The notes below the pieces were generated by a model. The model saw only the letters and a program-made list of their open reading frames with translations, was not told the DNA's origin and did not search any database. The position numbers and the translations under genes were made by a program. DNA of 46,716 nt, from NCBI GenBank assembly GCA_018580065.1, contig GCA_018580065.1_4845.1; one strand, 5' to 3'. Shown here piece by piece: positions 3,543 through 39,897 of this stretch. Source of the stretch: a phage. Position 1 is the first letter of the stretch. Each line of letters starts with the position of its first letter.

Positions 3543-4168
3543 AAAACATTCCTATATGAACGATTTTTCTTGATGTGCTGGATAGCACCTTTAGACACGC
3601 CAAACTCATCAGCAAGTGATTGTGAGTGCTCTCCATTTGCTAGTCTGGTTCTCACCTCCCTAACCTGATCATCAGTTAATTTAGCGTGTTTTGGAGTCCT
3701 GCCGAACATTGGGTTTTTCTCGCCAATTCTTGATTGCGATATTTTCTTTCTTGTTTCTTCTGTTTTTGGACCCATAGAGCAAGGTGGTGTTTTCCCATAC
3801 CAGCAGTTATTCTTTCCCATCCTGCTTTTGCTCATTTTAGCTTTAGCCACATCTGTTGCCTGAACCCCCAAGCACGTACCAGCTATTTTTGCCACATTAT
3901 ATTGAGGACTTAGCTTGTCTATGTAGAATTGCTCTCTACTAAGCAGGATTGATTCATCGTTAACAATTTCAAGAATTGAAAATCTGAATAATGACTCGCC
4001 ATATTTTGCTCCATCATTATACAACCTGTGTGGGCTGTGCATGCCATTCCTCATTTTGTATCGATGCACAGCAATTCTATTGGTGTAGCTTATTGTTGAA
4101 CCAACATAAATCTCTTTAGTTATTGTATTTTCAATCTGATATACAGCCATCACTCTCTTCATTTGCAC
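3539..4168 (-). CDS. GIY-YIG homing endonuclease
   Basis: N-terminal VYQIEN...IYVGST...R..H GIY-YIG motif, repeated NUMOD-like K/G-rich modules, C-terminal HTH. AT-rich insert between connector genes. Confidence 0.85.
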   Translation of the reverse strand: MQMKRVMAVYQIENTITKEIYVGSTISYTNRIAVHRYKMRNGMHSPHRLYNDGAKYGESLFRFSILEIVNDESILLSREQFYIDKLSPQYNVAKIAGTCLGVQATDVAKAKMSKSRMGKNNCWYGKTPPCSMGPKTEETRKKISQSRIGEKNPMFGRTPKHAKLTDDQVREVRTRLANGEHSQSLADEFGVSKGAIQHIKKNRSYRNVL

Positions 4169-34472: not shown

Positions 34473-34994
34473 ATGGGTTTCTGGAATCTTTCTGACGGTA
34501 AAGCTGTTGAGTCTAAATCTGAATTTGAACTGGGTGGTGGTTTCGAAGTAATTCCTGATGGCAGCCGTGTTCTTGCTGCCGTTGAAGAATGTAAAGACGA
34601 TCAGTGGGAAGGTGAGCGATTCTTCAATCTTAAGTGGCGAATCCTTGAGGGTGATTATAAAAATCGCATCATCTTCCAGAAGCTGAAAGTATTTAGCTCA
34701 AAAGAAAAGCAGCGCGACAATGCTATCACTATGCTTGCAGCAATTGACGCAAACGCCGGTGGCAAGCTGATGGCTTCAGGTAAAGAGCCGACTGATTTTG
34801 CTATTGCTAGTGCGCTTGCAAATCGCCCAATGATTCTTCTTCTTCGCGTTTGGGAGTCTGAGGATAAGCAAAAAACTGGTAACTATGTGGCTGGTGTTTT
34901 CAGTCGTCAACAGACAAAAGCATCACCTACTACTAAGCAATCAGCGCCGTCTAACGAGCCGCCGATGGACTTTGACTCTGACGTGCCGTTTTAA
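34473..34994 (+). CDS. DUF669-type phage ssDNA-binding protein with SSB-like acidic C-terminal tip
   Basis: 173 aa. Ends SNEPPMDFDSDVPF, matching the bacterial SSB C-terminal tip motif. Confidence 0.75.
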   Translation: MGFWNLSDGKAVESKSEFELGGGFEVIPDGSRVLAAVEECKDDQWEGERFFNLKWRILEGDYKNRIIFQKLKVFSSKEKQRDNAITMLAAIDANAGGKLMASGKEPTDFAIASALANRPMILLLRVWESEDKQKTGNYVAGVFSRQQTKASPTTKQSAPSNEPPMDFDSDVPF

Positions 34995-35051: not shown

Positions 35052-35426
35052 ATGTACGAAGTTATCTGTGATTACTGCAATATTGCGACAAGACTAGCCA
35101 AAGGGAGTGAAATTTACCCACACAGACCAGACCTTTCGTCTCTTAATTTTTATCTGTGTGATTCTTGTGGTGCTTATGTTGGTTGCCATAAAAATGGTGA
35201 TGGTAAAAGGCCACTTGGGCGTGTGGCTAATGAAGAATTAAGGAAGGCAAAAAGCAAAGCCCATGCTGCATTTGATCCATTATGGAAATCAGGAAAAATG
35301 TCAAGAGGCTCTGCTTATTCTGCATTAGCTAGTTCGATGGGAATAAGAAAAGAGAAGTGTCACATAGGAATGTTTGATGTTAAGCAGTGCGAGCATGTTG
35401 TCGAGTGGTGCAAGGAGTTTGACTGA
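35052..35426 (+). CDS. DUF3268-like zinc-finger protein
   Basis: CDYC...YLCDSCGAYVGCH...PLGRVAN.ELR.AK..AH..FD.LW pattern. Confidence 0.6.
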   Translation: MYEVICDYCNIATRLAKGSEIYPHRPDLSSLNFYLCDSCGAYVGCHKNGDGKRPLGRVANEELRKAKSKAHAAFDPLWKSGKMSRGSAYSALASSMGIRKEKCHIGMFDVKQCEHVVEWCKEFD

Positions 35427-37291
35427 TGAAATACACACTAAGGCCATACCAACAGGAAGCTGTTGATTCAGCTATGGCACACATTCGCAGCACAATCTCA
35501 TCATGCGTTATCATCCTGCCTACAGGTGCAGGAAAATCTATGGTTGTAGCAGAACTTGCATCTCGTATTTATGGTATGAGCAAAAAGCGAGTTTTGTGCA
35601 TTGCTCCCACGGCGGAACTCGTCACACAAAATCGCGCTAAATATCTTCTCACCGGAGAACCAGCCAGCATGTTCAGTGCAAAGGCTGGCCCCAAAAACCT
35701 GCGTCATCCGGTGGTGTTTGGTTCACCAGTTACAATCAAGAACTCAATAGAGATGTTTGGTGATAAGTATGGTGCTGTCATTATTGATGAGTGCGATGGA
35801 ATAACACCAACCATTAAATTTATTATTAATGAAATGAAGCGTCGCAATCCAAAACTGCGTGTTATTGGAATGACCGCTACGCCTTATCGCCTTGGAACTG
35901 GATACATCTACAAAGAGCATTACCTCGACGGTCCTACAGATGAAGAAACAGCCATAGACCCATATTACGACAAAGTCGTTTATGAGCTTGAGGCGAAATT
36001 CCTCATTGAAAACGGATACCTTACGCCTCCAGTAACAGAGCCTGTTTTTGACGAGTATGATACGTCTTGTCTTGAAAAAGATAAGTTGGGTCGGTACACG
36101 ACGGCTTCAGTGGAAAAGGCGATGGTTGGCAAAGGAAGGAAAACATCACGTATTGTTGAAGATATTATCCGTCGCTCTGTTAATCGGCGCGGAACGATGA
36201 TTTTTGCCAGCACCAAAAAACACGCTATGGAGATAATGGAGTCACTTCCTCCCGGTTCTTATAGTTATGTTTTTGGTGACATGCCGACAGCTGAACGCAA
36301 TAAGGCAATATCAGACTTCAAGGCGCAAAAAGTTAAATACATCGTTAACCAAAATATACTTACTGTAGGGGTTGATGTTCCTCATTGTGATCACATAGCA
36401 GTAATGAGAGCCACAGAATCACCAAGGCTCTATCAGCAAATAATTGGCAGGGGGACGCGTCTTTATGAAGGAAAGGAAGACTTTCTTGTCAGCGATTACG
36501 CAGGCAACATTCAGCGCCACTTTTCTGAGACTGGGGACTTGTTCACTCCAGAAATAAAAGCAACAAGGAAAAAACCATCCGTGCCAATGGATGTCAAATG
36601 CCCTCTTTGTGGCTTTATTAATGAATTTGGTGTGCGCCCAAATCCTGAAAATCTTGAAGTTGACAAGGAAGGTTACTGGCTGGATTTGGCGGGTGACAGA
36701 GTAATGATTGATATTTTTGATAAGTCAGGTGAAAAGATTGGAAGCAAGCCTATGCCTGCTCATTTTGGTAGGCGGTGTAAAAACTACGTTATGCATGGAC
36801 CACTAAGGGAAATGCATAGGTGTACTTATAAATGGTCGGTAAAGGAGTGTCCTGATTGTGGGTTTGAAAATGATATAGCGGCAAGAAACTGCACATCATG
36901 CGGAGCTGAAATCATTGACCCCAACCAAAAGCTAAAAGAAGAAGCTGACAGGCTTGATTCCTCTCCTTATGCAACCAAGCAATCAAACGTAACCATGATG
37001 AACATCATGAAGCATTACGTTTCAAGCGGTGAAGATTTGGTACACGTAAAATTTGCTATTGAACATAAACCATTTTTTGTTAGTAAGTTCTACAATCCAA
37101 ACTCTGAGAAGGGATGGATGAAGAAGGAGTGGGAAGAATTTTGTGAGAAGTGCTTTGGTGAACATAACATGTCAATTGATGATGCAATAGCAAAAAGAGA
37201 TGAGGCTGTCGCGCCATCAGTGATTATGTTCAGAAGAGACAAGGGTAGTAAATATTTCAACGTTAAAGGCATGTATTGGGGGGTATTATGA
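35426..37291 (+). CDS. SF2 DEAD/DEAH-box DNA helicase with C-terminal zinc ribbons
   Basis: RPYQ, PTGAGKS (Walker A), DECD, TATP motifs. CPLCG and CPDCG...CTSCG ribbons. Confidence 0.9.
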   Translation: MKYTLRPYQQEAVDSAMAHIRSTISSCVIILPTGAGKSMVVAELASRIYGMSKKRVLCIAPTAELVTQNRAKYLLTGEPASMFSAKAGPKNLRHPVVFGSPVTIKNSIEMFGDKYGAVIIDECDGITPTIKFIINEMKRRNPKLRVIGMTATPYRLGTGYIYKEHYLDGPTDEETAIDPYYDKVVYELEAKFLIENGYLTPPVTEPVFDEYDTSCLEKDKLGRYTTASVEKAMVGKGRKTSRIVEDIIRRSVNRRGTMIFASTKKHAMEIMESLPPGSYSYVFGDMPTAERNKAISDFKAQKVKYIVNQNILTVGVDVPHCDHIAVMRATESPRLYQQIIGRGTRLYEGKEDFLVSDYAGNIQRHFSETGDLFTPEIKATRKKPSVPMDVKCPLCGFINEFGVRPNPENLEVDKEGYWLDLAGDRVMIDIFDKSGEKIGSKPMPAHFGRRCKNYVMHGPLREMHRCTYKWSVKECPDCGFENDIAARNCTSCGAEIIDPNQKLKEEADRLDSSPYATKQSNVTMMNIMKHYVSSGEDLVHVKFAIEHKPFFVSKFYNPNSEKGWMKKEWEEFCEKCFGEHNMSIDDAIAKRDEAVAPSVIMFRRDKGSKYFNVKGMYWGVL

Positions 37292-37743
37292 TTTTTCCAG
37301 AAGGCGTTAAGGTATATGGTGATTTAGATTACAGAAACAAAAAGTGCCCGTCAGAAGATGCTGAGCTTGAGACTTTTGTGAATCAGATAAGGAAGCTATA
37401 TCCTGACTTTGCAAGAGTTATGATTCATGTACCAAATGAAGGAAAGCGTAAAGGGTATGAAGTTGAAAACCTGAAGAAAAAAGGCGCGCTAAACTTCGGG
37501 GCGTCAGACATCATTATCATCGGAAAGCAATCATTCGTTATGGAGATGAAAAGAATGGATCATACTTTATCAAAATGGCAGCCCGGTCAAATGGCATACC
37601 TAAAGGCGGCAAAAGAATTAGGTTCCTTCGCGTGTGTATGCCTTGGCTGGGAAGCTGCAATGATGGCATTTAACGACTGGAGAGCAATGAATTACCCAAA
37701 CTATAAGAAACCATCAGAGCCATTGATATTTGATGGTTTTTAG
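37288..37743 (+). CDS. VRR-NUC domain nuclease
   Basis: 151 aa. GASDIIIIGK...VMEMKR (D...E.K) PD-(D/E)xK core typical of VRR-NUC. ATGA coupling to the helicase gene. Ends at TAG 37741-37743. Confidence 0.8.
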   Translation: MIFPEGVKVYGDLDYRNKKCPSEDAELETFVNQIRKLYPDFARVMIHVPNEGKRKGYEVENLKKKGALNFGASDIIIIGKQSFVMEMKRMDHTLSKWQPGQMAYLKAAKELGSFACVCLGWEAAMMAFNDWRAMNYPNYKKPSEPLIFDGF

Positions 37744-37860
37744 CAACCACGCCAGCAATCAGGCCAACAACCGCAAAGACAACAGCAGCCACCAAAACAA
37801 CAAAGACCACAAGGAGGCAATGAGCCTCCGATTGACTTCGACGATTCGATACCCTTCTAG
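37744..37860 (+). other. in-frame SSB C-terminal tail coding segment downstream of the VRR-NUC TAG stop
   Basis: Same frame as VRR-NUC. Translates QPRQQSGQQPQRQQQPPKQQRPQGGNEPPIDFDDSIPF-stop. No in-frame start codon. Lies before the terminator. Confidence 0.6.
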
Positions 37861-37865
37861 ATGAT

Positions 37866-37897
37866 AAAACCAACCCCGCCGAAGCGGGGTTGGTTTT
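37866..37897. terminator. strong bidirectional rho-independent terminator
   Basis: 14-bp perfect stem AAAACCAACCCCGC/GCGGGGTTGGTTTT, loop CGAA. Confidence 0.9.
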
Positions 37898-37986: not shown

Positions 37987-39897
37987 TTAAGCGCCCTTCA
38001 TCACAGCATACTGGCCCAGGGAGGCACGCACCACCGTGAACTCCGCAGCAGACAGGGGTGGAATAGCATACGGGTTATTAACTCCAAGGCCCAGAATCTG
38101 CTGCCCAATCACAGGGTAGACGTTCACAGTGTGCGCTGTACCATTATAAATAATCACACTGTAACCATCACCTGCATCAGTAGTACTGGTAAGTTTAACA
38201 CCAGTACCGGCGCTCCCTGATTCCACAAACACGCGACTAGCGGTATTACCATACCCAGTAGCAGTTGCCTGATCACCACCTGCCGCTGTAACTACGGCAA
38301 TGGGTACATTGTCAGCTTTAACCACTTTACGCACAATCTGAGCTTTACCGCCGGATACAACCACGTCCAGATCATCCGTAGCATGTGGAGTGCCCTGCAC
38401 TGCTACGTGCGTAGTGCTAGCGGTATAGCCTCGGATACGAATACTATTGTAACCGGCGCTATCCCCTACGTACAGCGTGCCACCATCTTGACCATTAGCG
38501 ATACAGTCAATCACGGAGCCAGACACACCACCAAAGCCTCCGGCCAGTTGCACACCAATCGCCGGTGGTAGACCAATTCCTTTGTACTCCTCACCGATGT
38601 AGCAGGATATGCGAGCGTTAGAGCCTGCTAGGACAATGTTTGCACCGGACCACGGGTAGTAGACCTTACAGGACTCACTCAGGGTAAAGTTGTTAGCCTC
38701 TACAAATACGTTTGTATCAGCTCCCTCGAAGTGTGAGGTGTCGAACTCATTACCCTCTGCTGGGCGGGATACCTTGAGAGCATACTTAGAACGAGCATCA
38801 TCAGCACTAGTCCAGCAGTGTACGCCTGACCAACGGGCATTACCGCGCTCAAGCCACAGACCGGAGTAGGTGCTAGCCGTATTCTGACCGGAGCTGATAA
38901 TAATGATATCGGAGCACACACTGTCATGTGGTCCTGCAAAGCGCCATCCGTCCTCGCCAGATTTATCAATAAGAATATTTTTGAAGGAGCCCTCCATACC
39001 ACCGCTGGCGTTACCTGAGTCGGCCCACTCGGTGCGCATACCGTTACGACCGCAGTTGATGATATTGACGCCCTCTACGCGGATACGGAAGCCATACAGG
39101 GCGATACCAGAACCGGTAGCATTGTTGGCCTTGTTCCCGTCGATGGTGAGGTTCTTAATGATAGTACCATCTACACCACCCAGGGACTGTGTGCCCCACA
39201 GGGCATCAGCACCATCGCTGTAGATACAGGCTGCGTTAGTCCCGTTCTTCAGCTTCAGGAACGAGCGCTCCTGCCCAACACCTTGGATAGTAGTCTTGGA
39301 GTAAACAGTCAGCCTGCCAACCAGAGTAGTACCCTCTGGTACACGGCAGGGTTTACCTGTAAGTTTGTTCTCATTAATGGCAGCCTGGAAGTTAGCGGTA
39401 TCGTCGGTTACACCATCACACTTACAACCCCACCCGCGAATATCACCCTCATCACGCCAGCGTTGAATCTGAATTGATGGAATCAGTTTATAACCATCGT
39501 TTGATGCCAATTCCGTTCTCAATGATGCATCACCAACACTAATCCACGCGCCAAAACCAACTCCGCCGGAATTTTCAGGAGTTGAAGCGGCAGAAACGGT
39601 TTTAGGAAATTCACCATCCCAGCGGTAATATTCTCCAGTGGATTCGTATCGCAATACCTGATTAGGCAATGTCAGCGTTGCGCCATCCTCGAAGCTATCC
39701 ATTGTGATATATCCATAGTTACGAATAGCTTCTTCTGCTGTGTATTGGAACCCAGCAATTGTCCAGCGGCGCACTCCGAATCTGTCGGTATAGTAATGCG
39801 CGTCAGATGTCACTACCTCGTCAATCTTACCAGCATTAAATTTCAGGTCGCGCGGGTCTTCTGACGGAATTGGTTTATTCGTTGGTGTGGTAGCCAT
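37987..39897 (-). CDS. tailspike, pectate-lyase-like beta-helix
   Basis: 636 aa. GWGCKCDGVTDDTANFQAAIN motif of the pectate_lyase_3 type. Gly/Ser/Thr-rich repeats. Conserved-looking N-terminal adaptor domain. Confidence 0.85.
   Translation of the reverse strand: MATTPTNKPIPSEDPRDLKFNAGKIDEVVTSDAHYYTDRFGVRRWTIAGFQYTAEEAIRNYGYITMDSFEDGATLTLPNQVLRYESTGEYYRWDGEFPKTVSAASTPENSGGVGFGAWISVGDASLRTELASNDGYKLIPSIQIQRWRDEGDIRGWGCKCDGVTDDTANFQAAINENKLTGKPCRVPEGTTLVGRLTVYSKTTIQGVGQERSFLKLKNGTNAACIYSDGADALWGTQSLGGVDGTIIKNLTIDGNKANNATGSGIALYGFRIRVEGVNIINCGRNGMRTEWADSGNASGGMEGSFKNILIDKSGEDGWRFAGPHDSVCSDIIIISSGQNTASTYSGLWLERGNARWSGVHCWTSADDARSKYALKVSRPAEGNEFDTSHFEGADTNVFVEANNFTLSESCKVYYPWSGANIVLAGSNARISCYIGEEYKGIGLPPAIGVQLAGGFGGVSGSVIDCIANGQDGGTLYVGDSAGYNSIRIRGYTASTTHVAVQGTPHATDDLDVVVSGGKAQIVRKVVKADNVPIAVVTAAGGDQATATGYGNTASRVFVESGSAGTGVKLTSTTDAGDGYSVIIYNGTAHTVNVYPVIGQQILGLGVNNPYAIPPLSAAEFTVVRASLGQYAVMKGA

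Follow-up and report, generated by a model that had tools for sequence, protein, structure and literature searches.

We analyzed a stretch of phage DNA of 46,716 nucleotides (nt) (NCBI GenBank assembly GCA_018580065.1, contig GCA_018580065.1_4845.1; the whole stretch is referred to below as the window), in which the TAG stop codon of a nuclease gene is followed in frame by 38 codons that match the 3' end of ssb, the gene for single-stranded DNA-binding protein (SSB). The features at this locus are the following:

37288..37743, + strand: gene for a VRR-NUC-fold nuclease of 151 amino acids (aa), based on its open reading frame (ORF) and translation, a phrog_824 match and a predicted structure.
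37744..37860, + strand: remnant of the 3' end of a bacterial-type ssb gene, comprising its last 38 codons (a Gln/Pro linker and the acidic tip NEPPIDFDDSIPF) and its stop codon, with 88–94% identity to the ends of intact ssb genes.
37866..37897, unstranded: intrinsic terminator hairpin with a 14-bp stem, between the convergent nuclease and tailspike genes and shared with ssb-carrying siblings.

The nuclease ORF comprises 151 codons and ends in ...PLIFDGF, followed by the TAG at positions 37741–37743. Frame 0 then remains open for 38 codons, QPRQQSGQQPQRQQQPPKQQRPQGGNEPPIDFDDSIPF, before a second TAG at 37858–37860. This segment (hereafter, the tail), which lies in the 3' untranslated region of the nuclease mRNA, contains a Gln/Pro-rich linker and a D-x-x-I-P-F C-terminal tip. 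No ATG, GTG or TTG occurs in the ssb frame within 37744–37860, and the window has ATT where relatives have an internal Met codon. An earlier model-generated description of the locus, based on the letters and ORFs only (the sequence-only reading), had given the same coordinates for an in-frame 38-codon tail without a start codon, upstream of a strong terminator at 37866–37897; the sequence and its ORFs bore this out, and the terminator was found as the hairpin listed above.

The tail is derived from ssb. In megablast searches, positions 37744–37891 matched annotated ssb 3' ends, together with the terminator behind them, at 88–94% identity and with E-values down to 2e-42; the matches include Salmonella phage Akira, E. 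coli phages ASO78B and HC6, and Vi II-E1. When the search was made more sensitive, 155 records had ssb ends that matched the tail. The homology begins at position 37744, the first base past the nuclease stop, and none was found upstream of this junction. E. coli SSB ends in ...MDFDDDIPF, and the tail likewise encodes a linker and a canonical tip; moreover, the exact tip of the window, NEPPIDFDDSIPF (PPIDFDDSIPF), also terminates the real SSBs of two phage loci (L070 and L072). Judged from these comparisons, the resemblance to SSB is far beyond chance. In contrast to bacterial SSB, the tail lacks an OB-fold DNA-binding domain, a start codon of its own and a translation signal, and natural versions of it carry stops or a tip altered to ISF.

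The gene order around the tail indicates how it came to lie there. In ssb-carrying siblings, ssb is the last gene of a helicase/exonuclease/recombinase/SSB module and precedes the shared terminator and a tailspike gene in convergent orientation. The window phage and its close relatives (Sa179lw, Sf11, ECO111 5-P, YX3973 and several IMG/VR and Logan contigs) have instead a module of AAA_24 (Sak4-like) ATPase, Gp157, DUF669, DUF3268, helicase and nuclease genes, of which the nuclease gene is the final one. Because the ssb homology occupies the syntenic spot and the rest of ssb is absent, the tail represents a retained ssb 3' end at a module boundary; the junction of the module swap lies directly past the nuclease stop and inside the ssb linker, and 38 ssb codons were therefore left. 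We consider it very probable that positions 37744–37860 are a non-coding remnant of an ssb 3' end, located where the replication/recombination module meets the tailspike cassette, and not an extension of the nuclease produced by programmed readthrough.

We compared the synonymous (dS) and non-synonymous (dN) divergence of the tail with those of its neighbors, calculated as means over 28 pairs of members of the window clade. In addition to the nuclease gene, the following gene served as a control:

35426..37291, + strand: superfamily-2 helicase gene, whose stop codon overlaps the start of the nuclease gene.

The mean dS and dN were 0.23 and 0.014 for the nuclease gene, 0.27 and 0.010 for the last 1200 nt of the helicase gene, and 0.87 and 0.053 for the tail. 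The dS of the tail is thus approximately fourfold that of the adjacent genes (0.23–0.27), an excess too large for neutral drift or for purifying selection acting in place, but accounted for by import from an older and more diverse pool. Comparisons with real ssb genes point to the same pool. The mean tail distance was 0.135 within the nuclease-linked group, 0.143 within the SSB-linked group and 0.137 between the two, and the groups were not differentiated (Fst –0.01, permutation P = 0.74). A real SSB tail was the nearest neighbor of most nuclease-linked tails, and 31 codon variants were common to nuclease-linked tails and real SSBs, including multi-nucleotide variants (DSIPF versus DDDIPF). 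The tails of a sister clade of Klebsiella phages likewise share haplotypes with the real ssb ends of Klebsiella phages. A low dN/dS ratio in the tail, accompanied by a dS excess and by the absence of differentiation, shows that the constraint on the tail does not act in place and is inherited, that is, imported from functional ssb genes.

The far side of the tail is flanked by a gene of variable content:

37987..39897, − strand: tailspike gene of 636 aa, converging on the nuclease gene, read from its ORF and with a conserved N-terminal anchor.

The N-terminal anchor part of this tailspike (about 39510–39897) showed 83–88% identity to relatives, and the receptor-binding part (38000–39500, − strand) had no megablast match among 50,697 phage records. 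The domain Tail_spike_N was called on the homologous neighbors, and these differ in length and domains beside identical nuclease genes. The tailspike gene is an exchangeable cassette, the 3' flank of which consists of the ssb remnant and the terminator (annotated as bidirectional in ASO78B).

Breakpoints of recombination are located both at the 5' edge of the remnant and in its interior. At the edge, six loci (L151–L156) showed 0–1 mismatches across the last 450 nt of the nuclease gene, began to differ 7–35 nt past the stop and accumulated 120–176 mismatches in the next 260 nt; for four of the five loci with a called downstream gene, the tailspikes differ in length and domain content. In the interior, the sequence of Klebsiella phage YX3973 matches the window clade as far as about +95 nt, a point within the DNA encoding the tip, and matches the Klebsiella clade from there on. 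The next ~80 nt, which cover the rest of the tip and the terminator, are identical to those of Klebsiella-clade phages, and identity to these phages is still 70–90% into the tail fibre gene. A further ssb fragment was found in a different genomic context, in Sashavirus BDX09P1 (L008, 2722–3150), where an ssb pseudogene sits between the gene for an 843-aa tail protein and a tailspike gene. This pseudogene is 5'-truncated, lacks the normal N-terminus and contains an internal TAG 17 codons before its end (...KQQS-stop-QGGNEPPMDFDDLIPF). Its location next to a tailspike gene indicates that an ssb end can travel with the cassette.

These observations can be accommodated by the following mechanism. 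An ssb-type module was replaced by the Sak4-like ATPase/Gp157/DUF669/helicase/VRR-NUC module, with the right junction directly past the nuclease stop, and the in-frame position of the remnant relative to the nuclease is an accident of that junction. As judged from the population pattern, the remnant and the terminator would be the only homology to the more numerous ssb-carrying phages on this tailspike side, in which case recombinants that acquire a tailspike must resolve there. Each acquisition would overwrite the patch with functional ssb sequence from the donor, so that the tail would look conserved, rich in synonymous changes and open. An exchange of the strand-annealing type would convert the whole patch up to the end of the homology, which fits a boundary located exactly at the nuclease stop. 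Codons of the SSB tip would make a good universal patch, because selection on SSB keeps them near-invariant across enterobacterial phages. One of the explanations offered by the sequence-only reading was a scar left by the deletion of an ssb gene and in frame only by coincidence; the ssb remnant and its accidental frame agree with our results, but in place of a simple deletion we envisage a module replacement followed by repeated recombinational renewal.

We further asked to which gene the stop codon at 37741–37743 belongs. In tail-less relatives with about 65% identity (ECO95, gmqsjt-1, L144/L145, L148 and L149), the nuclease gene terminates at the homologous ...x-Phe-stop, with the same terminator immediately behind it. 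Homologues of the nuclease in a large protein collection are 119–152 aa in length; none of their 58 clusters is longer than 152 aa, and none contains a fusion of the nuclease to the tail through a sense codon. In the 341-member cluster defined at the 90% identity level, whose representative is 97% identical to the query, all of the 40 members read were 151 aa, except for one fragment of 109 aa. We collected 22 distinct versions of the junction plus tail in the window clade, from the window itself, GenBank phages, IMG/VR, one metagenome contig and Logan/ENA contigs; a junction scan of metagenome contigs gave one further locus only. A stop codon is present at this position in all 22 versions (TAG in 20 and TAA in 2). 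The Klebsiella sister clade uses TGA or TAA for the nuclease stop, and TAG and TAA are also used by the tail-less relatives. Thus, the comparison of this codon in related phages, which the sequence-only reading had suggested might reveal a sense codon, returned TAG/TAA or TGA/TAA and no sense codon. On this comparative evidence, the stop is ancestral and the nuclease's own.

An ssb 3' fragment directly past the nuclease stop was found in several clades and is therefore recurrent, although its in-frame status is not universal. In the Klebsiella sister clade (XY3, VLCpiS13c, 6991, RSU-F4K5 and IMG/VR or Logan loci), which has the same arrangement as the window, TGA or TAA is followed by an in-frame ATG and 21–23 codons ending in ...KPPANEPPMD(F)DDDIPF, and sibling Klebsiella phages have ssb ends with 94–98% identity to the tail DNA. 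All 17 loci examined (L009, L010, L011 and L013 at 1957–2035; L024–L029, L041, L058 and L171–L176) were open and in frame, with ATG in 16 of them and ATT in L028. A third clade, termed clade (c) (VLCpiS13b, L146 and L147), carries a shorter remnant, QQPSNSPPMEDDIPF, which is in the +1 frame in all three members; the nuclease ends GAG TTT TGA C/A, and the remnant reads (D/E)QQPSNSPPMEDDIPF (L014 1954–2010, L146 and L147). The clade (c) tip, MEDDIPF, was looked for among real SSBs: IMG/VR had none with it, and in the phage collection the sole match, at 85%, was to the ssb of a Klebsiella phage. We also considered the UUU UGA C of clade (c) as a +1 frameshift site similar to that of prfB (CUU UGA C); this idea is speculative and would need a different recoding mechanism for each clade, and we rejected it.

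Among the alternatives, the one that survives best, albeit as an improbable one, is that programmed or suppressor-dependent readthrough of the TAG yields a nuclease carrying an SSB linker and tip, which would dock on SSB-interacting host proteins or compete with SSB. The sequence-only reading had proposed such readthrough, and several observations are compatible with it: the window copy and 17/22 versions in total are open and in frame, as are all tails of the Klebsiella clade, and the dN/dS ratio of the tail is low (0.053/0.87). The five relatives first compared also differ from the window tail mostly synonymously and keep the tip. However, the low ratio comes with the fourfold dS excess and an Fst of about 0, as expected of an inherited constraint. 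The identity of the stop is not conserved (TAG/TAA in the window clade and TGA/TAA in the sister clade), and five of the 22 versions cannot be reached by readthrough because they contain internal stops (three versions: L021, L152 and L153) or are shifted to the +1 frame (two versions: L161–163 and L164–165). In the shifted versions, the junction reads TAG AAAA CCA... instead of TAG CAA CCA..., and the tail is otherwise intact; in clade (c), as noted above, the whole remnant is in the +1 frame. Disruption was significantly more frequent in nuclease-linked tails (5/22) than in real SSB tails (0/23; Fisher's exact test, P = 0.022).

The state of the tip and the signals around the stop were also considered. 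In E. coli, the ssb-113 mutation P176S abolishes binding of SSB to its partners. One in-frame natural version of the tail, present in contigs from several samples (L151, L157, L158 and L160; about 1165–1175 in L151), ends in DDDISF and not in DDDIPF, which we take to be the same penultimate Pro-to-Ser change. The window encodes no suppressor tRNA. RNA folding around the nuclease stop revealed no structure 3' of the stop (z = 0.15) and only the terminator hairpin, and Rfam gave no match in this region apart from chance hits on that hairpin. In addition, the 58 homologue clusters hold no sense-codon fusion, and the phage already has a tip-bearing SSB analogue, the DUF669 protein described below. 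In phage Q-beta, the coat protein is extended to the A1 protein by programmed readthrough at a UGA codon. The present locus resembles that system in having an in-frame open extension past a stop, and differs from it in that the identity of the stop, the openness and the frame are not conserved among relatives, and in that no stimulatory element was found.

Several points nevertheless weigh against the interpretation of the tail as a non-coding ssb remnant. As 17 of the 22 versions, including the window copy, are intact and in frame, a minor extended isoform may be physically possible. TAG, usually a rare stop, is used in 20/22 versions, and the following C and CAA CCA constitute a context that favors leakiness in some systems. 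In three junction types, the ssb fragment starts 0–5 nt past the nuclease stop, which is tidier than random illegitimate joins need be. The patch may be kept for promoting exchange, or it may merely persist by constant renewal. Finally, private singletons do not separate nuclease-linked from real SSB tails: in a McDonald–Kreitman-style comparison, the private variants of nuclease-linked tails comprised 3 synonymous, 10 non-synonymous and 1 stop, and the singletons of real SSBs comprised 6 synonymous and 29 non-synonymous (P = 0.7), although this comparison is uninformative because singletons in the linker of real SSBs are also mostly non-synonymous.

It is conceivable, but unlikely, that low-level readthrough of UAG-C, where the remnant is intact, gives rise to a minor nuclease isoform with a working SSB tip, in larger amounts in amber-suppressing hosts. 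If this were true, the minor isoform would be recruited to SSB-partner proteins or to SSB-coated DNA, and, as functional ssb genes often renew the tail, a moonlighting product would stay available although relatives can do without it. By the same low estimate, traces of an extended protein could arise through background UAG readthrough or in supE hosts; nothing indicates selection for it.

A still weaker alternative is that the region encodes an independent small protein, either the alternative-frame ORF corresponding to gp12 of phage Sf11 (37730–37864, TTG start) or an internally started tip peptide. In Sf11, gp12 is annotated as a 'hypothetical protein' in an alternative frame across the homologous stretch (window 37730–37864, + strand, TTG start; L003 3734–3916), and in the Klebsiella clade an ATG directly past the stop opens an ORF of 22–24 codons, MKPS...DDDIPF, at 16/17 loci. 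A translationally coupled SSB-tip peptide of 22–24 aa (MKPS...NEPPMD(F)DDDIPF) may thus be made in that clade. However, the pattern of substitutions follows the ssb frame and not the gp12 frame, for which reason the gp12 annotation is probably spurious; the ssb frame of the window tail lacks ATG, GTG and TTG codons; and versions with internal stops exist.

The least probable alternative, also raised by the sequence-only reading in its CAG form, is that a recent CAG/CAA-to-TAG nonsense mutation broke an ancestral VRR-NUC-SSB-tail fusion: the codon aligned with the stop in intact ssb genes is indeed CAA, one transition from TAA, but the idea is ruled out by the Phe-stop at which tail-less relatives in several sub-clades end and by the lengths of the homologues (none exceeding 152 aa), and it is further contradicted by the stop in 22/22 tail versions and by the lack of ssb homology upstream of the junction.

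The identification of the nuclease itself required structure prediction, since sequence searches were empty: a Pfam search gave no match even at E = 10, a sequence-profile search against the PDB gave none, and in PHROGs the protein falls in phrog_824, whose function is unknown. The gene starts with an ATG at 37288 that overlaps the helicase stop as ATGA. An AlphaFold (AF2) model built from 35 homologues had a mean pLDDT of 89, with a confident core and low confidence at residues 136–151. In a Foldseek search of the PDB, the top six matches to this model were chains of 4qbl ('VRR_NUC domain protein'; probability 1.0, TM 0.6–0.77, rmsd about 2 Å), followed by FAN1, and residues E51, D74, E86, K88 and Q101 were invariant across the 35 homologues. 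The label VRR-NUC, which the sequence-only reading had assigned, is therefore supported at the level of the predicted fold (4qbl as the best match) and of the motif of invariant acidic and Lys residues, which are predicted to be catalytic, and not by a Pfam model.

The last 17 residues of the nuclease (window 37693–37743, the last 17 alignment columns) form a C-terminal extension that is confined to enterobacterial clades and is modelled with low confidence. It always ends in x-x-Phe-stop (FDGF, IDSF, INNF, IESF, IKEF, IDNF), and this acidic/hydrophobic end with its C-terminal Phe recalls the tips of SSB and of T7 gp2.5. Shuffle tests gave no support for an origin of the extension (...KKPSEPLIFDGF) by earlier capture of an SSB tip that has since degenerated (P = 0.03–0.66, for a comparison chosen post hoc). 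In ECO95 1-6-1, the nuclease gene (L006, about 3700–3745; the same in S.Kent 1-2-1) contains an in-frame TAG 11 codons before the homologous end (...YPKQN-stop-PSSPITISHF-stop), where its relative gmqsjt-1 reads ...YPKQNEPSPPTTINNF and then the stop. Either this nuclease is truncated, or the unverified record has a sequencing or assembly problem.

A second gene of the module bears on the SSB tip:

34473..34994, + strand: gene for a DUF669 protein (PF05037; phrog_9002, 'single strand DNA binding protein'), the SSB analogue of the recombination module.

This protein ends in a translated SSB-type tip, NEPPMDFDSDVPF, confirming the second tip that had been read from the sequence, so that the window phage already possesses a tip-bearing protein. 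The only DNA similarity between the 3' end of this gene and the remnant is that imposed by the peptide. As for the helicase, some relatives encode a protein of 968 or 941 aa instead of about 621 aa (L156 1–604, ENA contig MUNK18-1 scaffold_248; L005 467–3292, YX3973). The helicase of L156 has hits to Hom_end_hint and LAGLIDADG, which suggests an intein or a homing-endonuclease insertion in this gene. The only tRNA gene in the window is for tRNA-Met (CAT; 2327–2403, + strand).

The ssb remnant can be compared with known features of mosaic phages. Where modules join in mosaic genomes, there are remnants of genes and conserved linker or boundary sequences, in line with the modular theory of Susskind and Botstein, and boundary sequences of lambdoid phages were reportedly described by Juhala et al. 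in 2000 and Clark et al. in 2001. As with those sequences, a short stretch is shared here between interchangeable modules, with breakpoints clustering at its edge and inside it. The difference is that the patch is a recognizable fragment of a protein gene, with conservation borrowed from selection on the intact ssb genes of other phages. Tailspikes of the P22, Sf6 and HK620 type are exchanged as cassettes by means of a conserved N-terminal head-binding or anchor domain. Similarly, the anchor here is conserved, the receptor-binding part is variable and identical neighboring genes are linked to several tailspikes; unlike in those phages, the second flank of the cassette is the ssb-tail remnant with the terminator, and the crossover of YX3973 inside the tip-coding DNA accompanies a change of host from E. 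coli to Klebsiella. Gene remnants at mosaic junctions have long been recognized in lambdoid phages, and the ssb remnant adds a new case. It is in keeping with published work on the present phage group (Skatevirus and relatives), which describes extensive mosaicism (PMC11769527, PMC11990801). The comparative paper (PMC11769527) contains no occurrence of 'SSB', and the ssb-remnant junction is absent from it.

These results indicate that an open, in-frame and apparently conserved extension past a stop codon can arise wholly by recombinational import from functional homologues, without any need for translation. Two tests used here, namely the comparison of the dS of the extension with that of its neighbors and the survey of lesions over many natural variants, can be reused for recoding candidates in mosaic genomes, in which an open frame and an abundance of synonymous changes do not by themselves indicate recoding; the dS of the extension must also match that of the neighboring genes, and the extension must be intact across many variants. 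For this group of small siphoviruses, the analysis places one flank of the tailspike cassette within ~150 nt, which is relevant to the prediction of host range and to engineering by tailspike swaps.

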